A model generated the notes under the pieces. It saw only the letters and a list, made by a program, of their open reading frames with translations, ran no database searches and had not been told where the DNA came from. The position numbers and the translations under genes were made by a program. From Pseudomonadales bacterium (GTDB lineage Bacteria; Pseudomonadota; Gammaproteobacteria; Pseudomonadales; GM7GCV1), in NCBI GenBank assembly GCA_965204215.1, contig CBDBDZ010000013.1, positions 1,165,606 to 1,229,605 of the forward strand: 64,000 nucleotides of DNA. Direction: 5' to 3'. Positions 23,393 through 57,718 of the stretch are shown here, in pieces (position 1 is the first letter of the stretch; every line of letters begins with the position of its first letter).

Positions 23393-23490
23393 TCAAACCT
23401 GACGAAAACTCAATGTTTCAGTCAAATGCTGTTGCTGGATTTGCTCACTCTCCTGCATGTCCGCCAGCGTCCGCGCCACCCTGATAATAC
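23393..23490 (-). pseudogene. comM: Displaced 3'-terminal fragment of comM (about 32 codons plus stop); left island junction
   Basis: The reverse complement reads ..IIRVARTLADMQESEQIQQQHLTETLSFRQV*, against ..IIRVARTLADMQESEQIQQQHLTETLSFRKL* at the end of intact comM (56231-56328). No upstream comM sequence is attached. Confidence 0.85.
23405..23472. repeat. 68-bp direct repeat, left copy (putative attL core)
   Basis: Identical at all 68 positions to 56243-56310 (AAAACTCAATGTTTCAGTCAAATGCTG...CGCCAGCGTCC). The next 18 bp match at 13 positions. Confidence 0.85.
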
Positions 23491-23882
23491 CCGTCTTTAT
23501 CTTGTAGCGTTTTATCCTTGTTATGAATCAGTTTTAAATGCGTTGCCTGTTGCGCTTTAAGACGCTCAACTTCTTCAACAAGTCGTTGATTTTACTTCTG
23601 TAATTGCACAAAATTCATCACGCAATTATAGCAAAACCAACCCTAAAAAGCGCCCTAAATCAACCCACTACCGATAAATAATTTAAAGCACTATGACCTT
23701 GCATCCTGGTTACATCCAAACCTCGCAATAATCACTCCAATTGTTCAACAGACCACTCCAATACTTCCGATTCCAATGGTAGAAATATCAGGGCTTATAG
23801 CGATACTATAGATTTATTTGATAATTTTTAATTTTATATTTAATATCTGCATCGTGATTATGTTGACTTTTGCAAGTCGATT

Positions 23883-24127
23883 AACCTAGATTCCGTAGTT
23901 GAACCTGGAATTTACAGTTATTTTCAGGAAATAATGCAAGGCATGGCTTGCAGGTAATGGTTGTAGCCCTTACCAAAAGCCATAACGCAGCAGTGTGAAC
24001 TGAAAAGGGCTGTAAAGCCAGGTAGCGGTTTGTAATTCACTTATGAAGTGAATCGAAGAATAAGCGTTTATCAATAACATTCAAACTCTTAGAAGTGAAA
24101 TTAGCGTTCAACTGCGGAATCTAGGTT
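23883..24127. other. Unclassified 245-bp element bounded by 22-bp inverted repeats (MITE-like or structured RNA)
   Basis: AACCTAGATTCCGTAGTTGAAC (23883-23904) pairs with GTTCAACTGCGGAATCTAGGTT (24106-24127) at 21 of 22 positions. The interior has several compact hairpins, two with GNRA loops (CAGT-GTGA-ACTG at 23991-24002 and GGCT-GTAA-AGCC at 24008-24019), plus an 8-bp stem at 24035-24053. Confidence 0.45.
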
Positions 24128-24244
24128 TAAGGGTCTGGTTTTGATTATTGAACAAGGGCTATCGCTTTTGCCGATAAGTGGTGCTGTGTTTGTATTTTGT
24201 AATCGCAAACGCGACAAAATGAAAATCGTGTACCGGGACAAGAC

Positions 24245-24337
24245 AATTAGATGCCTTGCGCCAGTTTGTAACATTTTTGTCAGTTCGTCGCTAAAACTTG
24301 TTGGATTTTCGAATAAATTTAAAGTATTGTTAGTCAT
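24245..24337 (-). pseudogene. Transposase N-terminal remnant (possibly IS256/Mutator-like)
   Basis: Only about 31 codons (MTNNTLNLFENPTSFSDELTKMLQTGARHLI) resemble the N-terminus of a DDE transposase. The frame then degenerates, and the remnant abuts the IS5-like element. The family assignment is from memory and is weak. Confidence 0.3.
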
Positions 24338-24418
24338 GGTGTATCTCGTTGTAGTGGTTAAAATTAATGTTTTTATCAAACATCATTTCAACAGGATATG
24401 CAGCTTTTTTCAACTACT

Positions 24419-25931
24419 TAGTCAGTCCTGAAAAACATTTACCTATTTGATTATTATATATATTTTGTTACTATGTCAGTGTGATTTCGACCAGATATGT
24501 TAAAATGGTCTCTTATTTTTGGTCGAATTCATTTAAGCAATGCTCCCTCAATCACCGGTAATATCTCCCCAAACTGGCTTTTTTGATATAGCCAGCCAAC
24601 TCAATCCCAATCATATGCTACTGGCCTTGAGTCGTGAACTAGATTGGTCAAGTATCGAGTCATCGCTCAGCCCTTTATACAGTGCTAAAGGGCGCCGTGC
24701 TAAACCAATTCGACTTACTGAGTGGTCTGTTAATGTTAAAGCAACTGTACAATTTGAGTGATGATTCAGTCGTTGAACAGTGGCAAATGAATCCCTACTA
24801 TCAAGTATTCTGTGGAGAGACGGTGTTTCAAACATTGCCTCCTTGTCATTCAACTGAGTTGGTTAAGTTTCGTCAACGTATTGGCGAAGAGGGCGTGAAG
24901 CAACTTTTTCATAGTAGCGTACTATTGCATGGACAGGCATCGGATGAAATCACGGTATTGGTTGATAGTAGGGTACAAGAAAAAGCGATTACTTACCCAA
25001 CCGATAGTAAGTTGGCAATCAAGATTATTAATCGGTTGAATAAGTTAGCTAAAGAAGAAGGAATTCAACAACGTCGAACCTTTGTCAAAGAAGTGAAAGA
25101 ATTACGTTTATCTTGTCGTTATTTTCGTCATGTAAAACGACGTGCTAAAGCACGTAAAGCATTAAAACGTTTAAGAACTATAGCTGGTATTTTACTGCGT
25201 GAATTACAACGAAAATTACCAGCAACAGTATTGGCGTTACAGACAGAATCGTTTGAATTGTATGAGCGTGTACTAATTCAACAACCTAAAGATAAAAACA
25301 AAGTGTACTCACTACATGAACCTGACATTTACTGTGTCGGCAAAGGCAAAGACCATAAGCCCTATGAGTATGGACGTAAAGCATCAATTGTAGCCACACA
25401 GAAAAGTCAGGTCATTGTTGGCGTAGCCAGCCATGATGAAAATGAACATGACTCAAAGAATTTGAAAGCAGCTTTAGAATCTGCTCATGAGCATCGGCAA
25501 ACAACAATAGAACTAGCTGTGCTTGACCGTGGTTATCGAGGTGCAAACAAGCATGTTGATGTTGAGGTGTTATTACCCAATAAAAAGCTGAAACGAGATA
25601 CGCCGTATCAATCCCAAAAGAAGCGAATATTATGTCGGCAACGTGCAGCGATTGAACCTATTATTGGGCACCTCAAACACGATTATCGATTATCAAGGAA
25701 CTGGCTTAAAGGCAGTGAGGGCGATTCAATCAATTTACTGATGGCTGCTTGCGCCTGGAATTTGAAAAAATGGATGATATTTTTCTTTGTCTATCAAAAT
25801 GTTGATGTTAGCTATCCTGATAACGCACCAAAAGCTACTTTTATTTTCATTTTTGAAAACAATATCCTCATATTCAATACTCAATCACTATAATTGTAAT
25901 CCTCAAATTGCTAATTTTTCAGTACCGACTA
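24419..25931 (+). mobile_element. IS5/IS1182-family element, copy 1 (transposase frameshifted)
   Basis: About 1.5 kb and nearly identical to copy 2 (52398-53909). Terminal inverted repeats are TAGTCAGTCCTGAAAAA and TTTTTCAGTACCGACTA. An extra C at 24718 splits the 450-aa transposase into ORFs 24540-24761 and 24682-25893. Confidence 0.85.
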
Positions 25932-25945
25932 GGTACTTTGACTAG

Positions 25946-27530
25946 CCCGCATATTTCATAAAAAAAAGTACGGTGCTTGTTTAATGCGTTATAATTCAAT
26001 GTGTTAAGTCAAAATTATAAGCCAAGCACCGATGACAGATTGTACCTCAACTTCTACTTACTTTTCACCTTTAAATCGCCGTCAAATCGAAACTCAATTT
26101 AGTGGTGGCGATATGACCAGCAATGCTGGTGTTTTATTGCTCAGAGAGCTTGATAAACACTTATGTCTAAGCAAGCAAGTGGCATCGGTATTTCCCGATA
26201 CCCGGCACAGCAGTTATGTGAAACATTCACTGCAGAGTTTGATTCGTCAACGCTTGTATAGCTTATGCATGGGTTACGAAGACCTTAACGATCACGAGAC
26301 CTTGCGACACGATAAGGCATTACAAACGGCAACGGAAGCTGATCAAGTACTGGGAAGCCAGTCGACATTGTGTCGATTAGAACAATCATTTACTGCGCAA
26401 TCAAACATTGCCATTCATGACGTATTGTTGAACCTATTTATTGATTCGTTTGATAGTGCCCCAGAGGAATTAATTCTCGACTTCGATGCCACTGATGATC
26501 GCGTCCATGGTACGCAAGAAGGTCGCTCTTACAATGGTTATTATCGGCATTATTGTTTTTTACCCTTGTATGTATTCCTGCGGTGAACAACTGTTGGTCA
26601 GCTATCTTCGACCCAGTAATATCGATGGCGCGAAGCACAGTTGGGCGATTCTCAGTTTGTTGGTAAAACGGTTGCGTAAACAGTGGCCTAATGTCAGAAT
26701 CATTATACGTGGCGATAGTGGGTTTTGTCGGCATCAAATGATGAATTGGTGTGAGCGTCATGATGTTGGTTACGTGCTGGGCATTGCAAAAAATAGCCGA
26801 ATACTAGAGATGCTGTCACCCTGGATTGATGCGGTCAATGAACAATATGAACAATCTGGAAACCCCTTGCGCTGGTTTACTCATATCCAGTATGCAGCTC
26901 AATCATGGTCGCAGTCAACGCCGTGTCATCGCTAAAATTGAACATACTGGAAAAGGCATGAACCCGCGATTTGTGGTGACGAATTTATCGGGCGAACATC
27001 AAGCTATTTATGAGGATCTCTATTGTGCTCGTGGCGAAATGGAAAACCATATTAAAGAACAGCAACTCGATATGTTTGCTGACCGAACGAGTTGTCATCA
27101 CTGGTGGCCTAATCAATGGCGACTGTTGTTATCGTCACTGGCTTATGTGTTGATGGAGCGACTACGTCATCACTGCTTAAAAAGCACTGTTTTTGCCCAA
27201 TTACAAGTAGGAACCATACGCCCTTAAATTACTCAAAGTGGCTGCCGTTATTTTATCCAATACCAAGCGTATACGCTTACTATTACCCAGCGCATATCCT
27301 TATCAAGATATCTTCGAGTTGGTTGTCGCCCGGCTTTAAACCTGGATAAGACTGTAAAAAGTGCTGCCCCGGCACGAGAACAAACAATGGGGGTAAGGGG
27401 GAGTTATGTCTGAAATTCGGGCAAAGAGCATATTAAGCTACGTATTCAACAAACTTAAACTAAATTAAAGCAGGATAATCCAACTTCACCTTAAACTCAA
27501 AGTTATTTGTAGGTTTATGAAATATGCGGG
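25946..27530 (+). mobile_element. IS1380-like element, copy A (transposase degenerate)
   Basis: Terminal inverted repeats are CCCGCATATTTCAT and ATGAAATATGCGGG. It is flanked by CTAG on both sides (25942-25945 and 27531-27534). Several 1-nt insertions relative to copies B and C break the 437-aa ORF into 26032-26586, 26486-26935 and 26826-27227. Confidence 0.85.
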
Positions 27531-27734
27531 CTAGGAATTGTCGATGAAGCGGGCGAAATTAACTGGCATAATTTTGAGCGAACTAGTGACTTTATACAGC
27601 GCGAGAAAGCCAAAGGCGTTGTTCCTGAATTTGAAGGATAAAAGCTTATTTGAAGCCTGAAAAAATCTGATATTTTGACGGCGAGCCTTTTTTCTATCAC
27701 TATAAACGCATGGAAATTATCAATGGAACTATTA

Positions 27735-28843
27735 ACCCTGCATGAATATATCATAATTTTATGTTATAATACTAGTCATGAAACAAGTAGATTTAAGAAC
27801 CCTTAGCCCCGAGTCTCGACTAGAATTGAAAAAAATTTGTCTTCGCCTTTACAAGAAGGGAGATCGTACAAAAAAAGCCATAGCCGAAGAGCTTGGTCTT
27901 CGCTATATCACGGTATCAGAATGGCTACGTGAATATAAAGCATCAGGCGAAAAGCTCACCAAAGAAAAACCACGAGGACGCCCATTGGGAGTGGGACGGG
28001 ACTTAACACCGGAGCAAGAAAAACATATTCAGAAGTTGATTATTGACAAGACACCAGACCAGTTAAAGCTGGATTTCGCACTGTGGTCAATCAAAGCAGT
28101 TCAACAATTGATTGATGATGAATTTTCAATTGATTTAGCCTATCGAACTGTCTGTCTTTACCTTAATCGTTGGGGTTTTACCCCCCAGCGTCCAGTCAAA
28201 CGTAGTTATGAACAGCAACCTGCTCAAGTTCAACAGTGGCTTGATGAAGATTATCCTGCAATTCACCAACGCGCCCAGGATGAAGACGCAGAAATTCACT
28301 GGGGTGATGAAACAGGTATTTCGAGTCAAGAGCATTATCCTCGCGGTTATGCTCCTAAAGGGCAAACACCAGTTTTAGTATTATCTCACGCTAAGCGTGA
28401 ATGAGTTAACATGGTGTCAACCATTACTAATCAAGGAAAACTTCATTTTATGGTCTATGACGATAAGTTCACGGCTCAGGTCTTCATCAAATTTTTGAAA
28501 CAATTAATAAAGCAATCATCTAAAAAGGTTTTTTTGATTGTTGATAACTTACGCGTACATCATGCTAAATTGGTTCAAGAATGGTTAGCAGGTAATACTG
28601 AAAAAATTGAGGTCTTCTATCTGCCTAGCTATTCCCCTGAACTTAACCCCCGATGAGTATCTCAATTGTGATTTAAAGCGCTCAATGGGTGCTGATAAAC
28701 CGACTCGAAAGAAAGGGGATATTGCTAAAAATTAGATAAGCATATGAATCTGCTACAACAGCAACCCGAAAGAATTCAATCTTATTTCAAGCATCAGAAA
28801 ATTAAATATGCAGCTTAATAATTTCGAATATTTAATGCAGAGT
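27735..28843 (+). mobile_element. IS630-family element, copy 1 (transposase inactivated)
   Basis: 1109 bp flanked by TA. Relative to the intact copy 2 there are three lesions: a C-to-T nonsense change (GAACGAG to GAATGAG, stop at 28402-28404), an extra C in a C-run near 28648, and a lost A in an A-run near 28726. Confidence 0.85.
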
Positions 28844-28886
28844 TAATAACCAAGATAAAAACTGCCTAGAAGCGGCGAAGATAATC

Positions 28887-29237
28887 ATGGCACATTATCC
28901 ATTTGACCGTATCGCCACACAGGAGGAGATAGATTGGGCGTTGGCATGGTTACGGAGCGTCGAACCGTCTAACTCTGAATATGCACACTCCAAATCTGCG
29001 GCGCGAGATATGATTGCGTTGAAAGTTGCTTCGCCCAATAGCTACGAACCCAATGACCCGAAACGACTCAAGAAAATATCAGCTTTTATATGGGCAAGAG
29101 TCGGGCAACAGCCTAATTTTGGAGAGTTACTGGATTATCTTAAGACAGACGACGCGAAAATAAAAAGCCATACGGCGAAAGCATTGAAGAAGCGGAAGTT
29201 AGCGCGAAAGCGAGGTAGGGTTGGGAGAAAACGTTAA
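28887..29237 (+). CDS. Hypothetical island protein with Lys/Arg-rich tail
   Basis: 116-aa ORF with a clean ATG start and no competing ORF. The C-terminus KKRKLARKRGRVGRKR is strongly basic. No family recognised. Confidence 0.4.
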   Translation: MAHYPFDRIATQEEIDWALAWLRSVEPSNSEYAHSKSAARDMIALKVASPNSYEPNDPKRLKKISAFIWARVGQQPNFGELLDYLKTDDAKIKSHTAKALKKRKLARKRGRVGRKR

Positions 29238-30097
29238 AAATGTAAACATCATTGAAAAAATGAATCTACTCTACACATCAGTACTGTCACTATCCATGCC
29301 GCTGAATATAGCAAAATCGAAAGAGACAATCAATCAGATGTCTAGGTTCAGTACATGTGAGACAAAAGCATAAACATCAAGCAGCCTGTGTAATTTTCAG
29401 ATAATACTCCATTGGAGTATCTAATCCAACCTTTTCGTGTGGTCTATAAGTGTTATAGTAACTTTCATAATCATCTAAGGCTTGATTCATCAATCTAACA
29501 CTTAAACTCCCTTCATAAAAGGGATAAAACTCATAACGTGTTGTACCATTAGCCCGTTCAACACAGCCGTTTAAATCAGGACGCTTAGGTGGTAATACCC
29601 AAAGTTTGATACCGAGTTCACGACAGTATTCTTCAAATTCAGCCATAAATTCGCTACCACCATCCACTTGTATGGACTCAATAGTGAATGGGGCTTGTTG
29701 TTTTAAATACATGAGAAAGCGCTTAGCATTATGACTGGTTGCGGTACTGTAACAACGTAAGAATGTCATACCTGTTATCGGGCAGGTAGCTTTGAATTCT
29801 TTGACATTAAAGCCTTCGGTAAAACTAATACTCATATGGTCAATTTGAATCATCTGACCTACCTTCTTGGCTTTCATACCATATTGCCAACGTCTAGCGT
29901 GATAACTAAATTGTCGTTTCTTTTTAGGCTTCATACGCCCGCCATAATAAAACGATACAGGCAATATCTTACCGTTTTTAATAAATTTACTGATAATCCT
30001 ACCGACGCTACTTTCACTAATCGTTTGCTGATGGTCACGAACCATTATTTTCCATATTTTACGCTTACCCCAACAACGGTAACGCTGCCTAATATTA

Positions 30098-31206
30098 ACT
30101 CTGCATTAAATATTCGAAATTATTAAGCTGCATATTTAATTTTCTGATGCTTGAAATAAGATTGAATTCTTTCGGGTTGCTGTTGTAGCAGATTCATATG
30201 CTTATCTAATTTTTTAGCAATATCCCCTTTCTTTCGAGTCGGTTTATCAGCACCCATTGAGCGCTTTAAATCACAATTGAGATACTCATCGGGGTTAAGT
30301 TCAGGGGAATAGCTAGGCAGATAGAAGACCTCAATTTTTTCAGTATTACCTGCTAACCATTCTTGAACCAATTTAGCATGATGTACGCGTAAGTTATCAA
30401 CAATCAAAAAAACCTTTTTAAATGATTGCTTTATTAATTGTTTCAAAAATTTGATGAAGACCTGAGCCGTGAACTTATCGTCATAGACCATAAAACGAAG
30501 TTTTCCTTGATTAGTAATGGTTGACACCATGTTAACTCGTTCACGCTTAGCCTGAGATAATACTAAAACTGGTGTTTGCCCTTTAGGAGCATAACCGCGA
30601 GGATAATGCTCTTGACTCGAAATACCTGTTTCATCACCCCAGTGAATTTCTGCGTCTTCATCCTGGGCGCGTTGGTGAATTGCAGGATAATCTTCATCAA
30701 GCCACTGTTGAACTTGAGCAGGTTGCTGTTCATAACTACGTTTGACTGGACGCTGGGGAGTAAAGCCCCAACGATTAAGGTAAAGACAGACAGTTCGATA
30801 GGCTAAATCAATTGAAAATTCATCATCAATCAATTGTTGAACTGCTTTGATTGACCACAGTGCGAAATCCAGCTTTAACTGGTCTGGTGTCTTATCAATA
30901 ATCAACTTCTGAATATGTTTTTCTTGCTCCGGTGTTAAGTTCCGTCCCACTCCCAATGGGCGTCCTCGTGGTTTTTCTTTGGTGAGCTTTTCGCCTGATG
31001 CTTTATATTCACGTAGCCATTCTGATACCGTGATATAGCGAAGACCAAGCTCTTCGGCTATGGCTTTTTTTGTACGGTCTCCCTTCTTGTAAAGGCGAAG
31101 ACAAATTTTTTTCAACTCTAGTCGAGACTCGGGGCTAAGGGTTCTTAAATCTACTTGTTTCATGACTAGTATTATAACATAAAATTATGATATATTCATG
31201 CAGGGT
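30098..31206 (-). mobile_element. IS630-family element, copy 2 (intact)
   Basis: 1109 bp. The inverted ends are ACTCTGCATTAAATATTCGAAATT and its near-complement. A TA duplication lies at 30096-30097 and 31207-31208, inside the palindromic target ATAT-TA-ATAT. Confidence 0.9.
30123..31163 (-). CDS. IS630-family transposase (HTH plus DDE_3)
   Basis: Uninterrupted 346-aa ORF with an N-terminal HTH (ITVSEWLREYK) and the DDE region (HWGDETG ... LIVDNLRVHH ... LPSYSPELNPDEYLN). Confidence 0.9.
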   Translation of the reverse strand: MKQVDLRTLSPESRLELKKICLRLYKKGDRTKKAIAEELGLRYITVSEWLREYKASGEKLTKEKPRGRPLGVGRNLTPEQEKHIQKLIIDKTPDQLKLDFALWSIKAVQQLIDDEFSIDLAYRTVCLYLNRWGFTPQRPVKRSYEQQPAQVQQWLDEDYPAIHQRAQDEDAEIHWGDETGISSQEHYPRGYAPKGQTPVLVLSQAKRERVNMVSTITNQGKLRFMVYDDKFTAQVFIKFLKQLIKQSFKKVFLIVDNLRVHHAKLVQEWLAGNTEKIEVFYLPSYSPELNPDEYLNCDLKRSMGADKPTRKKGDIAKKLDKHMNLLQQQPERIQSYFKHQKIKYAA

Positions 31207-34200
31207 TAATATGCAAAACTATTTGCTCTTGCTGTTTTGTCCATTGTGATTGACGGCGATTATAAGGGCGACGGCTTTGTTCCACTAATCCTTCCCAACC
31301 TAGCTGATTATAACGTGCGCTCCAGCGATAATAAGTGGCTCGTGACCAGCCTATTGACTTCAAACGAAGTGCTTCGCTACAACCTTCTTGTTTCAATTGG
31401 TCATAGAGTTCTAGTCTATGGATTCTGTCAATTGCTTCAGTTGGCGCTCTATCATTAATGCGCCAACTGCGATATGATTTGATTCGTAGGCTTAAGGTCT
31501 GCATGGGTAGTCTCTCTGTAAGTTAATTTAGTCAAATTACAAAGGCTACCCGACTTTAAACCAGCTTTCAAATGACCTATTAATTTGATGGAAAAGTCTT
31601 ACGACTTTACCACAAATTAACAGGTGAAAAATTTAAAAAATAAGTCTCATATCTATCTGAACCTATACATCAGAACCGATTTACCAATATCAATGTCGAG
31701 CAATTATCAGAATAAGATAAAAGGTATGCCCACGACAAATTAGTTGTAAAAGATAGATGCCTCTTTATTTTCCTATAATTTCAAACCCTGCCAATCTTAT
31801 TGGAACGCTCTCGCGGTTCTGGAATATTTGATAATTCGATTCCCTCTTTAATCCATAAAGACCACTGTCTCAAAGCTACACCATATCTAGCTTTAGATTT
31901 TATTTTCCAGTTAAGGTTATTTTCAAAAGATATCTTCTCAGCAATTCCTTTTGCATCTATATTTGGAAACTCTTTCATTAATTCAATACATCTCAGTACA
32001 GACATTTCAGTTTTCACAGCTTCCCAAATTGCTTCTTTTCTTCCTCCTGATTTTTTTATTACATCAAGATTTAAAGTAACTAAATTATTCTTATCGGTGA
32101 CTAAATCAAGCCTCTTTAAAACCGATAGTTCATTTCTTTTTATAGCGGTTTTCAGGCAACCTGAATCAGATATATCGTTAAATGCTTTTAAAGCCGCTGA
32201 AGGAGACACTAACGCTAAAAAAACTTTACTACGTTTATTTCCCCTTTTTATCAAATCTTTCCAATCTTTTATAGCTGATCCCGCATCTTGTACGATAAAA
32301 TCAGTACTAACTGGAGATAAAAACCCACTATAAATAAGGTAAATGGCTAACCTATTTGAATAAGTACTCCAAGTTTTTTCTTCATGTTTAGCTCTAGGCA
32401 CGCATTTTTTAAGAGTTTTTCGAATAATAGATTGGTTAATAATTTTACCAGAGTACTCTTGATAAAGAGCTGTTTTTAGGGAGTGTTTACCCATTTTTTC
32501 ACGAAGTGATTTCAAAATAGCTATTTCATCATTAACACCAAGCTTATCACTTATTTTAAAAGATTCTCCTTTTCGCTCAGCTAGACCAAGTATTACTAAA
32601 TCTGCACCTATATTTAAGACAGTTCTCTTTTTTAAGCCGACCAGCCTCCCAATATCAAAAGAACTTGTAAAATTATCCACTTTCAACATTATACAAATAC
32701 TTATAAGAGAAGATGCTTCGGTTTTTGGAATGTAGTTATATGGTACAGTTGGAATTTTTTTTGTAAGTAGATAGTCTCTGAATATGTCCCAATATACATT
32801 AAGACGATCACCGCTTTTTATAACTAAATGCTTCTGTATTAAATTATTCAAAGCTGTTATTCCTGATATTTCTATAATTTCACTCCAATCAGCTGGTGCT
32901 TTTTGAGCAATGAGCTTTAAACATGCTGATGACTGTTGGGATAAATCCTTTAAATCATCATAAAATAAACGCTCTACATCAATATTAATTAATACAGCAT
33001 CTGCTCCTTTCCCTTTGACCATTCCATCATACAAATTAATATATAACCTTTTTAACAACCATGGGAATCCCTGACTAACTTGGATTATTTGATGTTTAAT
33101 TTCTTGATCAACGTTCTGTCGAATTTCTTTCTCAAACTTAGTAATTGAATTCAATATTTCTCCTTTTTCAAAAACATCTAAAGGAAATTCTTTCCGATAG
33201 TCAGATAGTTCGTGCCATGCATAATAAGCTGGATGGTCATCCTGTGAAATATTATCTGTCTTCCATGCAAATCCTAGAACAATATTACTTTTAATGCTAG
33301 CCACATCAAGCATTAGGTTTTTAGCTGCATTAAATATTCCAAATAATTCAGGTTTGGCATAAATCTCTTCAAATTGGTCAAATATTAAACAAACAACTTG
33401 TTCCTTTCTCACTAAAGATTCTAAATATAACTGGACGCTATTTGAGCTTAATGGTGAATCTGGATTGGTTAGAAACAATTCATTTTTGTCTCCAAAATCG
33501 CATTTTTGGGCTTCTCTCAAAAATTGAATCAATGATGCCAATATATAAGTGGGTTCCCGAGCTCCTCTCATGTCAACAGCATAAACAAAATATTTTTTCC
33601 GATAAAATCTATTCTTAGACTTATCTCTCAGTTTTGCAATAAGGGAGCTTTTCCCTAAACCAGAATCACCTGTTATGGCAAATACTCTTGTCCCTAAATC
33701 TTCCTTAGCTGATTCTAAGAAATTTAGTATATCTTTTTGAGTTGTATCACGACCCACAAAATCTATAGGTCTTGCTGGGCGATAATCGTTCCATGAATCT
33801 GCCGTTTGCACTTCGGCAACAAAAGGTAATTTTTTTGGCAATACATTTTCAATTGTATTACCCATATTAACTTTGAGGTCATACTCAATTAATACCGTGT
33901 CTAACAAAGATAAGTTTTGAATATTAACTCTGCATTAAATATTCGAAATTATTAAGCTGCATATTTAATTTTCTGATGCTTGAAATAAGATTGAATTCTT
34001 TCGGGTTGCTGTTGTAGCAGATTCATATGCTTATCTAATTTTTTAGCAATATCCCCTTTCTTTCGAGTCGGTTTATCAGCACCCATTGAGCGCTTTAAAT
34101 CACAATTGAGATACTCATCGGGGTTAAGTTCAGGGGAATAGCTAGGCAGATAGAAGACCTCAATTTTTTCAGTATTACCTGCTAACCATTCTTGAACCAA

Positions 34201-48159: not shown

Positions 48160-48163
48160 CTAG

Positions 48164-48380: not shown

Positions 48381-48741
48381 GCCTCTAATGGTGTCACTTT
48401 CTTCGAGGAGTAAACTATTGGGAGCTCTTTATTTATATCAATAATTTCAATACTTTAATCTCTTTATTCACTCATGTATAGCCCAATTGATTTTTTCTAA
48501 TGCATAATCTGGGTTCAATTTTCTCAGTATGCTCTGTCAGCCATTCATGAACAATTTTGACATGTACCACTCAAGTTAAACTGGACAAATGATTGACAAT
48601 TCCAAAATGTAGTATTAAGCTGGTCGGCGAGGTGTTTATCTTCACCAAACATCAAAATACCTCAATTAAAATATAAAAAATATAAAACAGAGATTTCCTT
48701 AAATCTTAAATATTTATTAAAACTTCCATAGATTGCAAATT

Positions 48742-51700
48742 ATGAAACCACACATTCAACCTAAAATATCGACAAAACAAAATATATTAATTAGTTCTAT
48801 AGTCATCTCATCATGCTTGATCGGTATCCCTTTAGTCGAGGCACAATCGCAAAACCCAAATGATACCAGCTCTTCACAAATCGAAGAAATGGTAGTGACT
48901 GGTTCTAGAATTAGAAGACCAGGCTTAGATACAATAAGACCAGCAATCTCTGTAGACTCAAGTTTACTTGGAGATAGAGCTTTCACAAATATCGCTGATG
49001 CATTAAGCGAAGTACCTACTTTTGGTGCAGGAATAGACCCGAATGGGGCGCAAAACGCTTTCACTGTAGGGCAAAATTTTGTAGACCTATTTGACTTGGG
49101 GTCACAACGAACTTTAACATTAGTTGATGGAAAACGGTTTGTATCTTCAAACACCCCTAGTATATTCGGCTCTGAAAGTGGTTTTCAAGTTGACATTAAT
49201 AGCATTCCAGTCGCTTTAGTAGATAGAATTGAAGTCGTACCACTAGCTGGTGCTGCAGTATATGGTTCAGACGCTATCGGAGGAGTTGTTAATGTAATAT
49301 TAAAAGAAGATTTCGAAGGTTTTGAAGCCAGTTTTCAAACTGGTATAACAGAAGAAGGTGATGGTGAGACATATCAATACCAAATAGTAATGGGTACAAA
49401 TTTTTCTGATAATAGAGGGAATATTACATTTTCTCTAGAACATGACAGACAAGAAGGGTTACTTCTAAATGAAAGACCCAGCCTTGTAAATAACAACCCT
49501 GGATTTTTAAATTTTGGAGGTCTTGATTTAGATGGAGATGGTAACGATGATGATTTGGATGGTGATGGACTCCCTGATTCTTTCGATGTTTTCACAACTG
49601 GGGGACAAGTCGTACAATTATTATCAGCAGGAGGTGCTGTTTCTGTCCCACCTGCGTTTTTTGCTCCATCAGCAGGCATTGGAGCTCTTGCAGATGGTAA
49701 CTTTTACCAATTTCAACCAAATGGAGACCTTGAAGCATGTACTCCAGGAGAAACTCCTGCTGGTTCAATATTTTTTGCATACGGAGGTACTTGTGGTGAA
49801 GATTTTTTTGACAATGTTGCTCAAATTAGATCTCCTCTCTCTAGAAATGTAGCTACAATATTTTCCAATTATGATATATCTGAAAATGTCAAATTTAAAC
49901 AAAGTCTCATTGTTTCAAATACTGAAGCTGATGAGCTAGTCAATCAAGGAGGATTTCAAAGCTTTCCTTTTTCAGGGACTTCTGGTCCGGTATCCCTCGC
50001 AGTTAGCAATCCATTATTGAATGATCAGGCTAGAGGAATATTGCAAGCAAATGGATTAACATCATTCAATATCAACAGATTTAATAATGATTTAGTATCA
50101 AATGGCATCGACTCTACTGAAAATTTCACATGGAGAAGCACCACATCACTCGAAGGCAGTTTTGAATTTGCTGAACGAAATTTCTATTGGGATATCACCG
50201 CTGTATTTGGTCAATCTGATGTAGAAACACAAACTACGGGAATAATTGATGGACGTTTTACTAATGCTTTAAACACAGTAACTTTAAACCAAGCCAGCTT
50301 ACAACCAGTAATTGACCAACTAACTAATAGTAATACGGATCTTAATGGTGATGGTGCTATAGATGTTAATGACGCTTTAATTGAATTCATTAGTAGTGGG
50401 GGTAGTGGTGTAGCGGATTTACAATTAGGTAGCATTGTTTGCCAAGCAAATATTGATGCCACTACAGGAACGCTTGATGGTGCTAACACTCCACCCTCAT
50501 TTGGGGGAATCACTGACGAAGACTCACCATTTGTAGAAGGCTGCGTTCCCTTAAACCTTTTTGGTCAAGGTGCCGCAAGCCCCCAAGCATTGGCTTTTAT
50601 CAATGGTGGTCCAAGTATTACTTCCTCAGATATTGGGCAAACTGTATACACAGCAAACTTATCGGGAGATGCATTTGACTTACCTGCTGGTACCATACAA
50701 TTCGCTATTGGATACGAAAATAGAGAAGAAACCGCTTCTTTTGTTCCTGGTTTAGGAGCTTCAATACCCATTACTCGAAGTTCTTCTTTCCCAACAACAG
50801 CTGGTAGACTAAATACTTCTGAATTTTATGGCGAATTGTTGATTCCAGTTCTATCTCAGGAAATAGATTTGGGTTCTTTTGATTTTATTGAGCTAGCAGA
50901 ATTTTCGGCATCAATAAGAAACGTAAATAACACTATTACAGATCCTAATGGCGTAGAAAATGAAGATAATGCTAACGCATGGGAAATAGGAGGTAGAATA
51001 AAGCCCTACAAAGGATTATCTATAAGGGGAACATTAACTCAAGCTATAAGAACTCCATCGCTAGTTGAACTATTCTCCCCTCAAGTACAAGCTTTTATTA
51101 GTGGAGCTGACCCTTGTGACAATAGAGAAATTAATGCTGGGCCAAATCCAGACGTACGCCGTGCAAATTGTATCTCTGCTGGAATTACAGATCCTGACAA
51201 TTTTACTTCAAACATACAAAATTCTACTATTATGGGAGCGACTGGTGGGAATCCTAATCTAATCACAGAACGCTCTAGATCTTCATTTGTTGGTCTCGAA
51301 TACTTACCTGAATTTTCTTTTTTAGAAAATTTAACTTTTCAACTAGACTTTTTTAATATTGAAATAGAAGACAGAATTGAAAATTTCGACTTTGAAGCTC
51401 TTGCCGAAACTTGTTTTGACAGCACTTCATTTCCAAACAGCGCATGTTCTCAATTTACTAGAGATGATACTGGTCAAGTTGTTGATGTAAGCGAAAGTTT
51501 CTTAAATGCAGCTAATTCAGAAGTCAGAGGATTTGTAAGTAGAATTACATACGAATCTCCATTAAGTGATTTAATTTGGTTTAGTAACAAGGAACTTGGA
51601 ATAATTGAGTTTGATTTGAGTACGGTTAGAACTTTTAGCGATATCACTCAAGTTGTTCCAACTAGACCAGGAGATCAAGATGCAGGAGACTTTTTCGACC

Positions 51701-52065
51701 CATCATTCGAAGGTACTTTTGATGTCACTTGGGAAAAAGGACCCTACCGAGTTTTTTATCGCATTCAGTTCCAAGACGCGCCAGACCTAGATGAAACTGG
51801 TGATGACATATTTTTATCAAATTTTGATCCTGACGACCTTACAGCAACTACATTTGTCTCAGAAACAAGGCCTAGAATTTTTCAAAATATATCATTTACC
51901 TATAATTTAGAACATTTGAATATCTTAGGTGACACTACTTTACAACTAAGTATAGATAATCTAACAAATCGTCAACCAGATCCAATTGAATTAGCTATCG
52001 GCTACGTATCTGTAACTGAACAATTGGGGAGAAGGTTTAATTTTAGGATTAGAAGTACATTTTAA
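48742..52065 (+). CDS. TonB-dependent outer-membrane receptor (large, ~1100 aa)
   Basis: A signal peptide is followed by a plug-domain start (IEEMVVTGSRIRRP) with IPVALVDRIEVVPLAGAAVYGSDAIGGVVNVILK, and a beta-barrel ending in the terminal F (FNFRIRSTF). The ATG at 48742 is preferred to the TTG at 48733. Confidence 0.9.
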   Translation: MKPHIQPKISTKQNILISSIVISSCLIGIPLVEAQSQNPNDTSSSQIEEMVVTGSRIRRPGLDTIRPAISVDSSLLGDRAFTNIADALSEVPTFGAGIDPNGAQNAFTVGQNFVDLFDLGSQRTLTLVDGKRFVSSNTPSIFGSESGFQVDINSIPVALVDRIEVVPLAGAAVYGSDAIGGVVNVILKEDFEGFEASFQTGITEEGDGETYQYQIVMGTNFSDNRGNITFSLEHDRQEGLLLNERPSLVNNNPGFLNFGGLDLDGDGNDDDLDGDGLPDSFDVFTTGGQVVQLLSAGGAVSVPPAFFAPSAGIGALADGNFYQFQPNGDLEACTPGETPAGSIFFAYGGTCGEDFFDNVAQIRSPLSRNVATIFSNYDISENVKFKQSLIVSNTEADELVNQGGFQSFPFSGTSGPVSLAVSNPLLNDQARGILQANGLTSFNINRFNNDLVSNGIDSTENFTWRSTTSLEGSFEFAERNFYWDITAVFGQSDVETQTTGIIDGRFTNALNTVTLNQASLQPVIDQLTNSNTDLNGDGAIDVNDALIEFISSGGSGVADLQLGSIVCQANIDATTGTLDGANTPPSFGGITDEDSPFVEGCVPLNLFGQGAASPQALAFINGGPSITSSDIGQTVYTANLSGDAFDLPAGTIQFAIGYENREETASFVPGLGASIPITRSSSFPTTAGRLNTSEFYGELLIPVLSQEIDLGSFDFIELAEFSASIRNVNNTITDPNGVENEDNANAWEIGGRIKPYKGLSIRGTLTQAIRTPSLVELFSPQVQAFISGADPCDNREINAGPNPDVRRANCISAGITDPDNFTSNIQNSTIMGATGGNPNLITERSRSSFVGLEYLPEFSFLENLTFQLDFFNIEIEDRIENFDFEALAETCFDSTSFPNSACSQFTRDDTGQVVDVSESFLNAANSEVRGFVSRITYESPLSDLIWFSNKELGIIEFDLSTVRTFSDITQVVPTRPGDQDAGDFFDPSFEGTFDVTWEKGPYRVFYRIQFQDAPDLDETGDDIFLSNFDPDDLTATTFVSETRPRIFQNISFTYNLEHLNILGDTTLQLSIDNLTNRQPDPIELAIGYVSVTEQLGRRFNFRIRSTF

Positions 52066-52376: not shown

Positions 52377-52397
52377 AAGTATATCGAAGAATATAAT

Positions 52398-53909
52398 TAG
52401 TCAGTCCTGAAAAACATTTATCTATTTGATTATTATATATATTTTGTTACTATGTCAGTGTGATTTCGACCAGATATGTTAAAATGGTCTCTTATTTTTG
52501 GTCGAATTCATTTAAGCAATGCTCCCTCAATCACCGGTAATATCTCCCCAAACTGGCTTTTTTGATATAGCCAGCCAACTCAATCCCAATCATATGCTAC
52601 TGGCCTTGAGTCGTGAACTAGATTGGTCAAGTATCGAGTCATCGCTCAGCCCTTTATACAGTGCTAAAGGGCGCCGTGCTAAACCAATTCGACTTATGAG
52701 TGGTCTGTTAATGTTAAAGCAACTGTACAATTTGAGTGATGATTCAGTCGTTGAACAGTGGCAAATGAATCCCTACTATCAAGTATTCTGTGGAGAGACG
52801 GTGTTTCAAACATTGCCTCCTTGTCATTCAACTGAGTTGGTTAAGTTTCGTCAACGTATTGGCGAAGAGGGCGTGAAGCAACTTTTTCATAGTAGCGTAC
52901 TATTGCATGGACAGGCATCGGATGAAATCACGGTATTGGTTGATAGTAGGGTACAAGAAAAAGCGATTACTTACCCAACCGATAGTAAGTTGGCAGTCAA
53001 GATTATTAATCGGTTGAATAAGTTAGCTAAAGAAGAAGGAATTCAACAACGTCGAACCTTTGTCAAAGAAGTGAAAGAATTACGTTTATCTTGTCGTTAT
53101 TTTCGTCATGTAAAACGACGTGCTAAAGCACGTAAAGTATTAAAACGTTTAAGAACTATAGCTGGTATTTTACTGCGTGAATTACAACGAAAATTACCAG
53201 CAACAGTATTGGCGTTACAGACAGAATCGTTTGAATTGTATGAGCGTGTACTAATTCAACAACCTAAAGATAAAAACAAAGTGTACTCACTACATGAACC
53301 TGACATTTACTGTGTCGGCAAAGGCAAAGACCATAAGCCCTATGAGTATGGACGTAAAGCATCAATTGTAGCCACACAGAAAAGTCAGGTCATTGTTGGC
53401 GTAGCCAGCCATGATGAAAATGAACATGACTCAAAGAATTTGAAAGCAGCTTTAGAATCTGCTCATGAGCATCGGCAAACAACAATAGAACTAGCTGTGC
53501 TTGACCGTGGTTATCGAGGTGCAAACAAGCATGTTGATGTTGAGGTGTTATTACCCAATAAAAAGCTGAAACGAGATACGCCGTATCAATCCCAAAAGAA
53601 GCGAATATTATGTCGGCAACGTGCAGCGATTGAACCTATTATTGGGCACCTCAAACACGATTATCGATTATCAAGGAACTGGCTTAAAGGCAGTGAGGGC
53701 GATTCAATCAATTTACTGATGGCTGCTTGCGCCTGGAATTTGAAAAAATGGATGATCTTTTTCTTTGTCTATCAAAATGTTGATGTTAGCTATCCTGATA
53801 ACGCACCAAAAGCTACTTTTATTTTCATTTTTGAAAACAATATCCTCATATTCAATACTCAATCACTATAATTGTAATCCTCAAATTGCTAATTTTTCAG
53901 TACCGACTA
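52398..53909 (+). mobile_element. IS5/IS1182-family element, copy 2 (intact)
   Basis: 1512 bp with the same termini as copy 1 and an uninterrupted transposase gene. Confidence 0.9.
52519..53871 (+). CDS. IS5/IS1182-family transposase (DUF772 N-domain plus DDE)
   Basis: 450 aa with the N-terminal InsH-type region (GRRAKPIRLMSGLLMLKQLYNLSDDSVVEQWQMNPYYQVFCG) and the DDE region (VLVDSRVQEKAITYPTD ... AVLDRGYRG ... AAIEPIIGHLK). Confidence 0.9.
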   Translation: MLPQSPVISPQTGFFDIASQLNPNHMLLALSRELDWSSIESSLSPLYSAKGRRAKPIRLMSGLLMLKQLYNLSDDSVVEQWQMNPYYQVFCGETVFQTLPPCHSTELVKFRQRIGEEGVKQLFHSSVLLHGQASDEITVLVDSRVQEKAITYPTDSKLAVKIINRLNKLAKEEGIQQRRTFVKEVKELRLSCRYFRHVKRRAKARKVLKRLRTIAGILLRELQRKLPATVLALQTESFELYERVLIQQPKDKNKVYSLHEPDIYCVGKGKDHKPYEYGRKASIVATQKSQVIVGVASHDENEHDSKNLKAALESAHEHRQTTIELAVLDRGYRGANKHVDVEVLLPNKKLKRDTPYQSQKKRILCRQRAAIEPIIGHLKHDYRLSRNWLKGSEGDSINLLMAACAWNLKKWMIFFFVYQNVDVSYPDNAPKATFIFIFENNILIFNTQSL

Positions 53910-54119: not shown

Positions 54120-54171
54120 AATGAACCATAGGTTATTAGAGTATTATTGAATATAAATAGAAGTTTGACTT

Positions 54172-56139
54172 ATGGCAAAAAAGGCTGTTTTCAATAGAGT
54201 AGCATTTTATAGGAAAGCAGTTGAAGTTATAGTAACTATTACTTCCTTTGCCGCTCCCGTTATTTTTACTGTAAAAGGTGCTGATTTTTCATACCTTCCT
54301 AAGCAGTTATTTATTTATTGTGGTATCTGTTTAATTATTTTTTTGTTTATTTGTGGGACAATTAATAAACAAAAGTTACGCTTTAATAATTTAGTCTTCG
54401 TATTATTTAGTTTTTTAATATGGTGTTTAGCTTCAGTGTTTTACGCCTATAATTTTTATGAAGCTTTTCCAATATGGGTGTATTGGATGGCATTGGGAGT
54501 ATTACTTATTACTTTATTGCAATTAGATAGCAAAACTTTAATCGTTAATTTGATGCTGGCTTTGATTCTATCGGCAACTGTAAATAGTTTGATTGGTATT
54601 GCACAATATTATGATTATTTACAATGGATTCCTCATAAAACCCCAACATCAGCAACATTTGGTAATAAAAACATAGCATCACAATTCGTAGTCATGATTA
54701 TACCGATTGCAGTGGCTATGATGTTCTTATCAAAATCACTACTTCGATTTTTATTACTGATGCTTGCATCAATTAGTATGTCATTTTTTCTAATCATTGC
54801 TGAAAGTCGCAGTGCATGGTTAGCTAATATGGTAAGTTTAACTACATTATTTATTGGAATCATCATTTTATACTATAGAGAACTACCTGATTTATTACGT
54901 AATAATAGACAAAGAATATTGATTATTGTCACCGTTTTACCAATAACTTGGTTAACATTATTACCTAGCGGTGATTTTTTCAAAGATCGCTTTATAATCA
55001 ATATTAGCTCAATTGAACAATATAGCAGTGAACGTCATAGAGTAGATATTTGGAAAAATACCATCGCAATGATTGAAGATAAGCCTTTCATTGGCTATGG
55101 TTTAGGCAATCATCAATTATTTTATCCAAAATACCACGATGCAGTGGTTGTTGATCAACGAATAGGTGAGCGATCAAAATTAAGATATGTTCATAATGAC
55201 TGGTTACAATTATTATCAGAAACTGGTTTAATCGGATTATCACTCTTACTTGCTTTGATTTTGGTAATTGTAAAATTAACTAGAAACTCTTATGTTTTTC
55301 AAACTTCACGTCAAAATAAAATCTATGTAATCAGTATCAGTGCTGGGTTATTGGCTCTTAGTGTTACAACATTGTTCAGTTTTCCGATGTATCGAAGCAT
55401 TCCACCTTTTGTAGCTATTATCTATTTGGCAATGTTGAGTAATTTAGGTTCTCAATTCACTTTTGTTACAGTGCCTAAATATGTTGTCAGGCTTGTGTTC
55501 CTTATACCGGCTACTTTATTGTTAGTATATTTAATAATAATAATGTTTCCCAAATTTATGACTAATTATGATTATAATATTAGCAAGGAAGCACATAGGC
55601 AGGGCTATAATCAAATTGCTCTTAATACCAGTAAAAAAGTTTATGAAAAAAACCCATATAACAAGAAAGTTCTTCTCCAATACGGTTCTTCACTTCTCAA
55701 TTTAAAAAAGTATAATGATAGTATTGAAGTTTTAAAATTATATAATTCATACTATCCTTACAGTTTTGCTGGATTATTTAACTTAGGATTAAGTTATTTG
55801 CGCAATGGAGATTATCAGCAGGCAAGAGTTAGTTTTCAGAACTTGCTTGATATTTACCCTCGAAACGCTCAAGCCTATCAAAAACTGGGAAAAGTTGATG
55901 TTTTTGAAAAACAGTACCAAGCTGCTGAACAAGCTTATCTAAAAAGTCTAGAGTACGATGCTAATAATGCTGAAGTCTATAACGACCTCGCTTTTATTTA
56001 TTTACAACAAAGTCAATTAAGCAAGGTCATTTATTCTTTAGAAAAAATGATTGAACTGGACCCAAATAGAAAAGATAAGGGAAAAGTAGAAAAGGCTATC
56101 AATCAACTAAAACTTGAATTAAATAAAGGTTCTAAGTAG
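54172..56139 (+). CDS. O-antigen ligase/polymerase-like (Wzy_C) membrane protein with C-terminal TPR repeats
   Basis: 655 aa. About 12 TM helices include the loop RSAWLANMV ... HNDWLQLLSETGLIG that is typical of O-antigen ligase-like proteins. The C-terminal ~170 aa are TPR-like repeats (YQQARVSFQNLLDIYPRNAQAYQKLG...). Confidence 0.8.
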   Translation: MAKKAVFNRVAFYRKAVEVIVTITSFAAPVIFTVKGADFSYLPKQLFIYCGICLIIFLFICGTINKQKLRFNNLVFVLFSFLIWCLASVFYAYNFYEAFPIWVYWMALGVLLITLLQLDSKTLIVNLMLALILSATVNSLIGIAQYYDYLQWIPHKTPTSATFGNKNIASQFVVMIIPIAVAMMFLSKSLLRFLLLMLASISMSFFLIIAESRSAWLANMVSLTTLFIGIIILYYRELPDLLRNNRQRILIIVTVLPITWLTLLPSGDFFKDRFIINISSIEQYSSERHRVDIWKNTIAMIEDKPFIGYGLGNHQLFYPKYHDAVVVDQRIGERSKLRYVHNDWLQLLSETGLIGLSLLLALILVIVKLTRNSYVFQTSRQNKIYVISISAGLLALSVTTLFSFPMYRSIPPFVAIIYLAMLSNLGSQFTFVTVPKYVVRLVFLIPATLLLVYLIIIMFPKFMTNYDYNISKEAHRQGYNQIALNTSKKVYEKNPYNKKVLLQYGSSLLNLKKYNDSIEVLKLYNSYYPYSFAGLFNLGLSYLRNGDYQQARVSFQNLLDIYPRNAQAYQKLGKVDVFEKQYQAAEQAYLKSLEYDANNAEVYNDLAFIYLQQSQLSKVIYSLEKMIELDPNRKDKGKVEKAINQLKLELNKGSK

Positions 56140-56230
56140 CTGATTATTTTGAAACTAGCACAGATTTTCAATAGTCTTTGAAAGAGTTGTTATTGCTTAC
56201 TGCGTTAAGCCACTGATATACATAATATGA

Positions 56231-57718
56231 TTACAATTTTCTAAAACTCAATGTTTCAGTCAAATGCTGTTGCTGGATTTGCTCACTCTCCTGCATGTCC
56301 GCCAGCGTCCTTGCAACCCGAATAATACGATGTATGGCACGAGGCGATAGTTTGAGTTGTTTCATGGCTTGTTGCAAAAATTGTTGCTGATTTGAAGTAA
56401 GTGGCGCGTACTGTTCCAGCTGTTTGCCTTGTAATTGTGCATTGGCACAGCCTTGACGTTGCATTTGTATTTTACGAGTTTGAATCACTCGCTTTCTGAT
56501 ATTTTCACTACTTTCTTCATGGGCGTTAGAAAATAGAGCTTGCTCGCTAGGTCGGTAAACATTAACCCGCAAGTCAATGCGGTCGAGAATAGGGCCAGAG
56601 AGTTTATTTTGGTAGCGTTTAATTTGATTATCGGAACACTGACAACTGTTGTCAGCTGAGCCATAATAACCGCATGGGCAAGGGTTATTAGCTCCGATTA
56701 ATGAGAACAGTGATGGGTATTTTACTTTTAGTGCCGCTCTGGATATTGTGACATTGCCGTTTTCAAGAGGCTCTCTCAGAGCTTCAATCACAGAACGTGG
56801 AAATTCTGGCAATTCATCTAAAAATAATGTTCCAAAATGACAAAGACTTATTTCGCCTGGCATTAATTTTTGATGACCTCCGCCCATTATGGCAATTTTA
56901 GAGGCGCTATGATTGACTTGACGAAAAGGTGGTTGTTTAAAGTCTGTTCTTGGAAGCCCGGCCACTGAGTAAATTGCCGCTACTTCCAATGCTTGTTCCT
57001 GAGTTAACGGTGGCAGGATGGATGGCATACGCCTTGCTATCATACTTTTACCAGTACCGGGGCTTCCAGTTAATAATATATTATGGTTGCCGCTGGCAGC
57101 AATTTCCACAGCCCGCTTGACTTGATATTGCCCTTTGACATCTGCCATATCAGGGTATTTTATTTGATTGTCATCACTTACTAAATTAATTTTGGGCAAG
57201 GTTTGTTGTCCAACTAAATGATTGCACACATCAATCAATGTTGATGCAATGTAAATGTTTTCATACTGGCTATAGATAGCATCTGTTTCATTGCAACTGG
57301 GGATAATGAGTTTTTTGTTATTGGCTTTGCAGGCTATAGCTATTGGTAACAGAGCATTAACGCTGCGAAGTTTGCCAGACAAAGCTAACTCGCCAACAAA
57401 GACATAATCATCAATATCGCTAGCTTCAATTTGACCAGCAGCCACCAGGATGCCAATGGCTATGGGTAAATCAAAGCGCCCACCAGCTTTTGGAAGGTCC
57501 GCCGGTGCTAAATTGACAGTAATGCGAAAATTAGTAGGGTACTTTAACTGCGAATTGGTAATAGCGCTTCGGACCCTTTCTTTCGATTCTTTGACTGCTG
57601 TTTCCGCCAGCCCGACAATGGAAAGCTGCGGCAGTCCATTGGCGAGATGGACTTCGACCTGTACAGCAGGTGCATCAACACCAATATTGGCGTGGCTTTG
57701 AATAATAGAAAGACCCAT
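56231..57718 (-). CDS. comM: Mg-chelatase-like AAA+ protein ComM/YifB
   Basis: 495 aa with a Lon-protease-like N-domain, Walker A (LTGSPGTGKSMI), Walker B (LFLDELPEF), a zinc-ribbon insert (CPCGYYGS..CQC) and a C-terminal helical domain. Confidence 0.93.
   Translation of the reverse strand: MGLSIIQSHANIGVDAPAVQVEVHLANGLPQLSIVGLAETAVKESKERVRSAITNSQLKYPTNFRITVNLAPADLPKAGGRFDLPIAIGILVAAGQIEASDIDDYVFVGELALSGKLRSVNALLPIAIACKANNKKLIIPSCNETDAIYSQYENIYIASTLIDVCNHLVGQQTLPKINLVSDDNQIKYPDMADVKGQYQVKRAVEIAASGNHNILLTGSPGTGKSMIARRMPSILPPLTQEQALEVAAIYSVAGLPRTDFKQPPFRQVNHSASKIAIMGGGHQKLMPGEISLCHFGTLFLDELPEFPRSVIEALREPLENGNVTISRAALKVKYPSLFSLIGANNPCPCGYYGSADNSCQCSDNQIKRYQNKLSGPILDRIDLRVNVYRPSEQALFSNAHEESSENIRKRVIQTRKIQMQRQGCANAQLQGKQLEQYAPLTSNQQQFLQQAMKQLKLSPRAIHRIIRVARTLADMQESEQIQQQHLTETLSFRKL
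56243..56310. repeat. 68-bp direct repeat, right copy (putative attR core, inside the comM 3' end)
   Basis: Identical to 23405-23472 and lies within the last 27 codons of comM. Confidence 0.85.

Follow-up and report, generated by a model that had tools for sequence, protein, structure and literature searches.

The stretch of DNA analyzed here (the window) comprises 64,000 nucleotides from a Pseudomonadales bacterium (GenBank assembly GCA_965204215.1, contig CBDBDZ010000013.1, positions 1,165,606 to 1,229,605 of the forward strand), and all coordinates below are positions in this window. It contains a genomic island of 32.8 kb that adjoins the 3′ end of comM (yifB) and that has, at both borders, direct repeats containing comM 3′ coding sequence. 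The comM gene itself is intact (56231 to 57718, minus strand). It encodes a full-length protein of 495 amino acids (aa) that carries all three domains (ChlI, Mg_chelatase, and Mg_chelatase_C) and reaches 593 bits with the YifB/ComM model TIGR00368 (cutoff, 362). A second, displaced comM 3′ end lies at the opposite border of the island and consists of a stop codon and 31 codons (23393 to 23488, minus strand; ..IIRVARTLADMQESEQIQQQHLTETLSFRQV followed by the stop).

Border repeats and the two comM 3′ ends

Positions 23405 to 23472 and 56243 to 56310 are identical over 68 bp, with a start-to-start spacing of 32,838 bp, as found by reading of the sequence, by a repeat finder, and by a pattern search. 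The left copy belongs to the displaced comM end, and the right copy lies within functional comM. When the pattern search was run over the whole 64-kb window with up to 3 mismatches allowed, the 68-bp sequence gave two matches, both at the island borders, and none in 100 shuffles. The repeat finder extended the similarity inward by another 18 bases, 13 of which match, for a total of 86 nucleotides (nt) at 94% identity. Beyond one chance 10-mer, we found no arm-type repeats common to both island ends, and no structured RNA, tRNA, or Rfam family was found at the island borders.

We then compared the two comM ends codon by codon, numbering from the stop upward. By translation, the displaced tail ends in ...LSFRQV (stop at 23393 to 23395), whereas intact comM ends in ...LSFRKL (stop at 56231 to 56233). 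Thus, codons 1 and 2 differ (QV on the left, KL on the right), as do the stops (TGA and TAA). Codon 3 is CGT on the left and AGA on the right, a difference of two bases that leaves arginine in both. Codons 4 to 25, which make up the 68-bp block, are identical. Codons 26 to 30 (R, A, V, R, and I) each carry a single-base difference, synonymous in all five cases. Codon 31 is again identical, so that codons 26 to 31 of the left copy (23473 to 23488, minus strand) read RAVRII as in comM; the similarity to comM ends there, with none in the left copy from codon 32 upward. The probability that all 5 mismatches would fall by chance within the last 18 of the 86 positions is low (P = 2.5e-4). Because the mismatches are both clustered and silent, this is not the pattern expected from simple decay of one duplicated segment.

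The identity block is therefore flanked on both sides by synonymously diverged comM coding sequence, which points to recombination between two diverged comM ends. This arrangement fits a reciprocal recombination, inside the shared block, of a chromosomal and an element-borne comM 3′ end, which would have generated hybrid attachment (att) sites, attL and attR. The displaced comM end (23393 to 23488) would then be the hybrid site on the side far from comM, with the crossover located in its copy of the 68-bp block and the six codons at 23473 to 23488 representing an arm derived from the element. At the other border, the last codons of comM (R-K-L-stop; 56231 to 56242) would have been supplied by the element.

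The endings of related proteins bear on which of the two copies is the older. The three closest ComM proteins (63%, 58%, and 55% identical) end in SFRQLW, SFRQLSS, and GFRQS, respectively, and these FRQ endings resemble the displaced tail (SFRQV) more than the current end of comM (SFRKL). Thus, the displaced tail is probably ancestral, and the current end probably came with the element, a polarity to which the relatives lend modest support. The displaced stop lies 47 bp upstream of a small gene on the same strand (70 aa from the ATG; 23133 to 23345, minus strand), which is presumably the original downstream neighbor of comM. This gene has no match in Pfam even at an E value of ≤0.01, and the label DUF1640, attached to it in the preliminary description of this DNA, is accordingly unverified. 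That description had also reported the perfect 68-bp repeat at the end of comM and the displaced tail, on which all of our approaches (sequence reading, repeat finder, pattern search, and translation) agree. It had interpreted them as the signature of an integration in which the element supplies a replacement 3′ end. Both the integration and its polarity are supported here, the former by the purely synonymous divergence on either side of the identity block and the latter by the endings of the relatives.

Mobility genes, insertion sequences, and cargo

To search for genes that could have mobilized the island, we performed three Pfam scans: one of all open reading frames (ORFs) of ≥80 aa in the island and both flanks, one of six-frame translations of all island intergenic stretches (E ≤ 1), and one of ORFs repaired by removal of insertion sequences (IS) together with all unassigned ORFs (E ≤ 1). 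No tyrosine or serine recombinase (Phage_integrase, Resolvase, or Recombinase) and no excisionase was found in ORFs or in six-frame intergenic DNA. Likewise, no relaxase, coupling protein, or type IV secretion family was detected in ORFs or intergenic translations by Pfam, with the origin of transfer (oriT) not searched for. Pfam also revealed no phage structural family, and the matches to PHROGs were limited to methylases and RadC. The matches to rve ("integrase core") and DDE families in the island correspond only to IS transposases. Among the six-frame intergenic translations, which were also inspected for integrase remnants, the sole match was a fragment of IS66 TnpB, and none of the ORFs rebuilt by IS removal encodes a recombinase. 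The absence of integrase, excisionase, relaxase, and transfer genes, as first noted in the preliminary description, thus holds for ORFs and intergenic DNA alike.

Because no recombinase, excisionase, relaxase, or transfer gene was found and IS make up approximately 38% of the island, the island is, as judged from its gene content, unable to move by itself. A relic of this kind could still be lost or moved by homologous recombination, for which either the 68-bp repeats or the direct IS5 copies of 1.5 kb described below could serve. It could also be moved by an integrase supplied in trans, or together with the whole region by transformation or transduction.

IS were inventoried by self-BLAST and inspection of their ends, with family names taken from NCBIfam. 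They account for about 12.4 kb (38%) of the island and belong to the IS5, IS1380, and IS630 families and an IS481-like type, some of them nested. Two IS5-family copies in direct orientation, A1 (24419 to 25931, plus strand; its listed transposase ORF starts at an internal GTG) and A2 (52398 to 53909, plus strand; 450-aa transposase), share 99.6% identity and enclose 26.5 kb of island DNA. In neither is a target site duplication recognizable, whether the ends are compared in place or crosswise. Homologous recombination between these two copies could delete or mobilize most of the cargo.

Three IS1380-family copies are each flanked by a 4-bp duplication, CTAG or CTAA. B1 (25946 to 27530, plus strand; CTAG) has a frameshifted transposase gene, B2 (34416 to 35996) lies inside an IS630 copy, and B3 (46580 to 48159, plus strand; CTAG) encodes an intact 437-aa transposase. 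The three IS630-family copies are each flanked by TA. C1 (27732 to 28846, plus strand), the transposase gene of which is disrupted, splits a 149-aa ORF of unassigned function (27671 to 29234). C2 (30095 to 31209, minus strand) interrupts an IS481-like transposase gene (29380 to 31522, minus strand), and in silico excision of C2 restores a 342-aa transposase. C3 (33924 to 36623) carries B2 and splits a defense-type gene. When B3 is removed in silico, a minus-strand ORF of 91 aa (RAPNSLLLEESDTIRGMTLLKKFIDKVGFIDL...; within 46443 to 48428) spans the insertion point; Pfam has no match for it, and it may be what remains of another gene or mobile element that was destroyed by B3.

The 8 kb at the left att site (23.5 to 31.5 kb) consist almost entirely of IS material. 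The segment directly adjoining the site (23489 to 24418) is degraded or noncoding DNA in which the IS66 TnpB fragment (approximately 24141 to 24270, plus strand) is the only recognizable remnant. Short minus-strand frames within 23534 to 23620 and 24240 to 24379 read MNFVQLQK.NQRLVEEVERLKAQ, which is leucine zipper-like, and ..SDELTKMLQTGARHLI, which is IS256-like; both resemble the N termini of IS transposases, with no support from Pfam. Copies of the same IS are 99 to 100% identical to one another by self-BLAST, which suggests a recent IS expansion.

The cargo consists mainly of defense and DNA modification genes, plus two envelope genes. All of the gene types that had been listed in the preliminary description were seen, namely, IS, defense-type genes, radC, methylases (here of the Dam and Dcm types), a TonB-dependent receptor, and an O-antigen ligase-like gene. 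The defense-type gene (31781 to 37230, minus strand) is present as two ORFs: an Mrr_cat ORF (206 aa; 36610 to 37230), which corresponds to an N terminus of the NACHT-associated restriction endonuclease (REase) type, and a STAND NTPase ORF (708 aa; nSTAND1/NACHT; 31781 to 33907). The two form one open frame once the nested IS are removed. What was formerly a 916-aa gene was thus killed by IS630 copy C3, itself later hit by IS1380 copy B2. It is followed on the plus strand by radC (37415 to 37924), a gene for a Dam-type N6-adenine methylase (38073 to 38825), and three ORFs of unassigned function (38914 to 39633, 39669 to 40019, and 40012 to 40527).

Downstream of these ORFs is an intact three-gene cassette (40524 to 44927, plus strand) that encodes a C5-cytosine methylase (416 aa), a fusion of a GHKL/paraMORC-type ATPase and a histidine kinase (721 aa), and a receiver-like protein (348 aa). 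The kinase, which has an HATPase_c_3 (paraMORC-like) ATPase domain, is 53 to 57% identical across distant phyla. The same gene order is found in Bibersteinia trehalosi and in a trmE-linked defense island of Comamonas kerstersii (cassette coordinates in the comparison loci, 8742 to 13253 in L006 and 8742 to 13244 in L007/L008, the last two from C. kerstersii). Within the cassette, PADLOC recognized only the methylase, plus a weak REase_II-like N terminus. The association of methylase, kinase, and receiver has been described bioinformatically (PMC8011034).

The next gene (44969 to 46069, plus strand) encodes a 366-aa protein of an uncharacterized family with 312 cluster representatives at an E value of ≤0.001. 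At the N terminus, its members carry a motif that is nearly invariant (K7, G11, Y14, Y16, Q18, R22, V27, and T29; KGxxYxYxQ..R..GKV.T.SRYIG). Neither the single sequence nor a 39-member profile matched Pfam or the Protein Data Bank (PDB), and tblastn found no match in phage or plasmid records. We considered this protein as a hidden recombinase and rejected it as a candidate, given the lack of Pfam and PDB matches and a single-sequence AlphaFold model that was too poor to use (pLDDT, 47). The two envelope genes lie between B3 and comM. One encodes a TonB-dependent receptor of 1110 aa in which only the Plug domain is recognized (48733 to 52065, plus strand), and the other encodes an O-antigen ligase-like (Wzy_C) membrane protein with C-terminal TPR repeats (54172 to 56139, plus strand). 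The Wzy_C-TPR gene has a GC content of 30.6%, is convergent with comM, and ends 91 bp from the comM stop.

The composition of these genes sets them apart from the surrounding chromosome. In the 19 flanking genes, GC content at third codon positions (GC3) ranges from 0.310 to 0.382; all 13 of the cargo genes fall outside this range, and GC content differs between cargo and flanking genes (Mann-Whitney test, P = 0.016). The cargo genes form two groups. The Mrr/STAND gene, two unknown ORFs, the methylase-kinase-receiver cassette, the TonB-dependent receptor gene, and the Wzy_C-TPR gene have low GC3 (0.21 to 0.31), whereas radC, dam, and the 171-aa and 366-aa ORFs have high GC3 (0.41 to 0.44). The island interior is therefore foreign, in agreement with the accessory content proposed for it earlier, and the two groups show it to be a mosaic drawn from at least two sources.

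Outside the island, both flanks carry housekeeping genes. Those on the left encode siroheme synthase-like and pyridoxal phosphate-dependent enzymes, a Mur ligase, an MMPL transporter, ribosomal proteins L13 and S9, methylmalonyl coenzyme A mutase and epimerase, carboxylase subunits, and two short-chain dehydrogenases. One left-flank gene (17307 to 19709, minus strand) encodes an 800-aa biotin carboxylase-type protein with weak or partial Pfam matches to its domains: Biotin_carb_N is matched over positions 53 to 107 of 110, CPSase_L_D2 in two stretches, and Biotin_carb_C below the cutoff. From these matches, the protein would be either unusually divergent or degenerating. The right flank comprises comM and genes for a DUF3426 zinc ribbon protein, a Rep/UvrD helicase, an OmpR-type response regulator, and an MGMT-like protein.

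Origin of the island and alternative explanations

We consider it likely that the locus is the remnant of a site-specific integration, in one or more events, at the last ~31 codons of comM, which gave the gene a replacement end and was followed by loss of the mobility module and by heavy IS invasion of the interior. The attachment site of the incoming element would have included a second version of the final ~31 comM codons, and the crossover would have taken place inside the 68-bp block where this version equaled host comM. As a result, comM would have been left intact with an element-supplied end (..FRKL). The original end of the host gene (..FRQV) would have been displaced by 32.8 kb and would still sit 47 bp upstream of its old downstream neighbor. 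Under this explanation, an integrase would have made the junctions, and the gene for it would have been lost after integration, along with the rest of the mobility module and in addition to heavy IS invasion.

An island-free site and related elements were sought in several sequence collections. By exact-protein look-up in a collection of 15 billion proteins, the island proteins and ComM are singletons, all on one contig. The best ComM match outside the genome itself is 63% identical and lies on an ENA metagenome contig; the next named matches (52 to 55%) come from Cellvibrionales, Methylococcales, and Oceanospirillales-type bacteria. The organism thus belongs to a very poorly sampled gammaproteobacterial lineage. 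A ComM-based search for related loci recovered, among genome contigs, only comM genes with 41 to 44% identical products from unrelated metagenome-assembled genomes and, among metagenome contigs, none. An exact scan with 50 nt of the 68-bp core found no match in metagenome or viral contigs, and megablast of the whole island against plasmid records likewise gave no match. Homologs of the Wzy_C-TPR protein, sought as a lead to related elements, were at best 29% identical. A Wzy_C gene two genes downstream of comM in a relative of the 55% class (L011) was considered as conserved synteny and rejected, because its resemblance to the gene in the window is at the family level only (24% over 119 aa).

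We also rejected phage-borne comM 3′ fragments as precedents for an attP site, since the tblastn matches are bacterial contigs mislabeled as phage. The records named "Acinetobacter phage MD-2021a" (e.g., L009, CAKLQH020000037.1) are Acinetobacter chromosomal contigs rather than phage genomes; they begin with the 3′ part of a comM gene split by AbaR and carry parC, creBC, and cysK.

Several observations weigh against a site-specific integration. No integrase or integrase fragment is present in the island, so that the recombination mechanism is read from the junctions alone. Intact islands at gene 3′ ends usually carry the integrase gene directly after the target gene; here, the Wzy_C-TPR gene occupies that position, ending 91 bp from the comM stop, and leaves no space for a remnant. 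Moreover, no empty site, attP form, or related element was found in any collection searched. The lack of an island-free site follows from the lineage being a singleton in each of these collections, and the nearest ComM relatives (63% and two at 55%) have no gene order in common with the locus. The cargo is a mosaic with bimodal GC3, part of which may have arrived after the founding event. Finally, the IS copies with readable target duplications are all simple insertions, and there is no trace of an IS-mediated deletion. The last point also qualifies the IS-mediated decay invoked in the preliminary description. The 38% IS content, the nesting, and the split cargo gene make such decay plausible as the cause of mobility gene loss, but it is a reasonable inference rather than a demonstrated event, given that the insertions are simple.

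An alternative to which we assign a small but real share of the probability is that the site is an accretion hotspot, in which a small founder or several elements at the same site made the repeats, while most of the 32.8 kb arrived later by IS transposition, in IS-flanked composites, or by independent insertions. The two GC3 groups (0.21 to 0.31 versus 0.41 to 0.44) would be in keeping with such a history, as would the direct IS5 pair that brackets 26.5 kb and a direct IS1380 pair that brackets 19 kb, and tandem accretion at att sites that include a target gene end has been documented (PMC5704250). However, the island has only two att-like repeat copies, with no internal att site to mark a tandem array. 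In addition, each IS1380 and IS630 copy is bordered by a target duplication of its own and thus represents a single insertion rather than the end of a composite transposon. Accretion would, in any case, alter the history of the cargo and not the origin of the borders.

Somewhat less probable is that the locus represents an undescribed family of integrative elements that target the extreme 3′ end of comM with a 31-codon replacement end. Such a family would perhaps be mobile in trans or through a noncanonical recombinase (for example, the family of the 366-aa protein). [quoted passage not shown]

We regard as improbable, and more so than either of the above, a duplication of about 90 bp at the comM 3′ end by a chromosomal rearrangement or illegitimate insertion without site specificity, followed by divergence of the copies. 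Although the island lacks a recombinase and neither an empty site nor attP was recovered, such a duplication would have to yield 0 mismatches in 68 bp followed by 5 in 18 bp, the distribution for which chance was estimated above. The five synonymous changes, together with the two-base difference in codon 3 that keeps arginine, point instead to two comM ends that evolved independently as functional sequences. Furthermore, the target duplications made by IS in the window are 2 to 4 bp in length, not 68 to 90 bp. Least credible, and refuted by insertion position and gene content, is membership in the known comM-targeting transposons, the Tn6022/AbaR-type Tn7-like elements and the tyrosine recombinase elements of the Tsy type. 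The two families share comM as their specific target, but their insertions fall at the Walker B motif in mid-gene and split comM, by means of TnsF with Tn7 proteins or with a tyrosine recombinase (PMC10293859). Here, the junction lies in the last 31 codons, comM is intact, and the Pfam scans found no TnsA/B/C, TniQ, TnsF, tyrosine recombinase, or GIY-YIG gene in the island.

Relation to known elements and significance

An integration remnant of the kind we favor resembles a cis-mobilizable element (CIME), which by its published definition keeps both att sites and has lost its mobility genes (PMC5704250). The comM island is likewise bounded by two att-like direct repeats, each with the target's 3′ end in it, and has an intact target gene and no integrase, excisionase, relaxase, or transfer gene. 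On these features, the locus matches the definition, with attL and attR retained and mobility genes absent after a presumed former presence, and we refer to it as CIME-like. It differs in that CIMEs were defined in Firmicutes, with a known parental integrative and conjugative element and demonstrated mobilization in cis, whereas this island is known from its sequence alone and has undergone massive IS invasion.

A second group of similar elements comprises integrase-bearing islands at the 3′ end of protein-coding genes (for example, at trmE, the SGI1-type islands and that of C. kerstersii), which likewise integrate at the very 3′ end of a conserved housekeeping gene and leave the gene intact. 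In C. kerstersii, an integrase gene directly follows the trmE 3′ end and is itself followed by defense genes, and the cargo, dominated like that of the comM island by restriction-modification and other defense genes, includes the same methylase-kinase-receiver cassette. Unlike the trmE islands, which have a tyrosine integrase directly after the target, the comM island has no integrase, and its target is comM rather than trmE. For comM itself, iMGE6 of Acidithiobacillus ferrooxidans ATCC 23270, a 94.9-kb island that bears an integrase, is listed with this gene as its target (PMC10322971). By that listed description alone, iMGE6 is similar to the present island in being large, in targeting comM, and in having direct repeats on its flanks; it differs in carrying an integrase and RitABC recombinases and in having a repeat of 14 bp (PMC10322971). 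Decayed islands bounded by a duplicated target 3′ end are textbook material, while integration at the very 3′ end of comM is less familiar, and no described family was matched to it.

The biology itself, a decayed genomic island riddled with IS, is ordinary. The analysis marks 32.8 kb of a poorly sampled gammaproteobacterial genome as horizontally acquired and flags defense genes within it, namely, the split Mrr-STAND gene and the intact cassette of methylase, paraMORC-type kinase, and receiver. It also illustrates that a codon-level comparison of the sequences flanking att sites can reveal reciprocal recombination between diverged gene ends where neither an integrase nor a comparator genome is at hand. 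Collectively, these data suggest that integration can take place at the very end of comM without inactivation of the gene, which would complement the comM-disrupting insertions of Tn6022/AbaR and Tsy.

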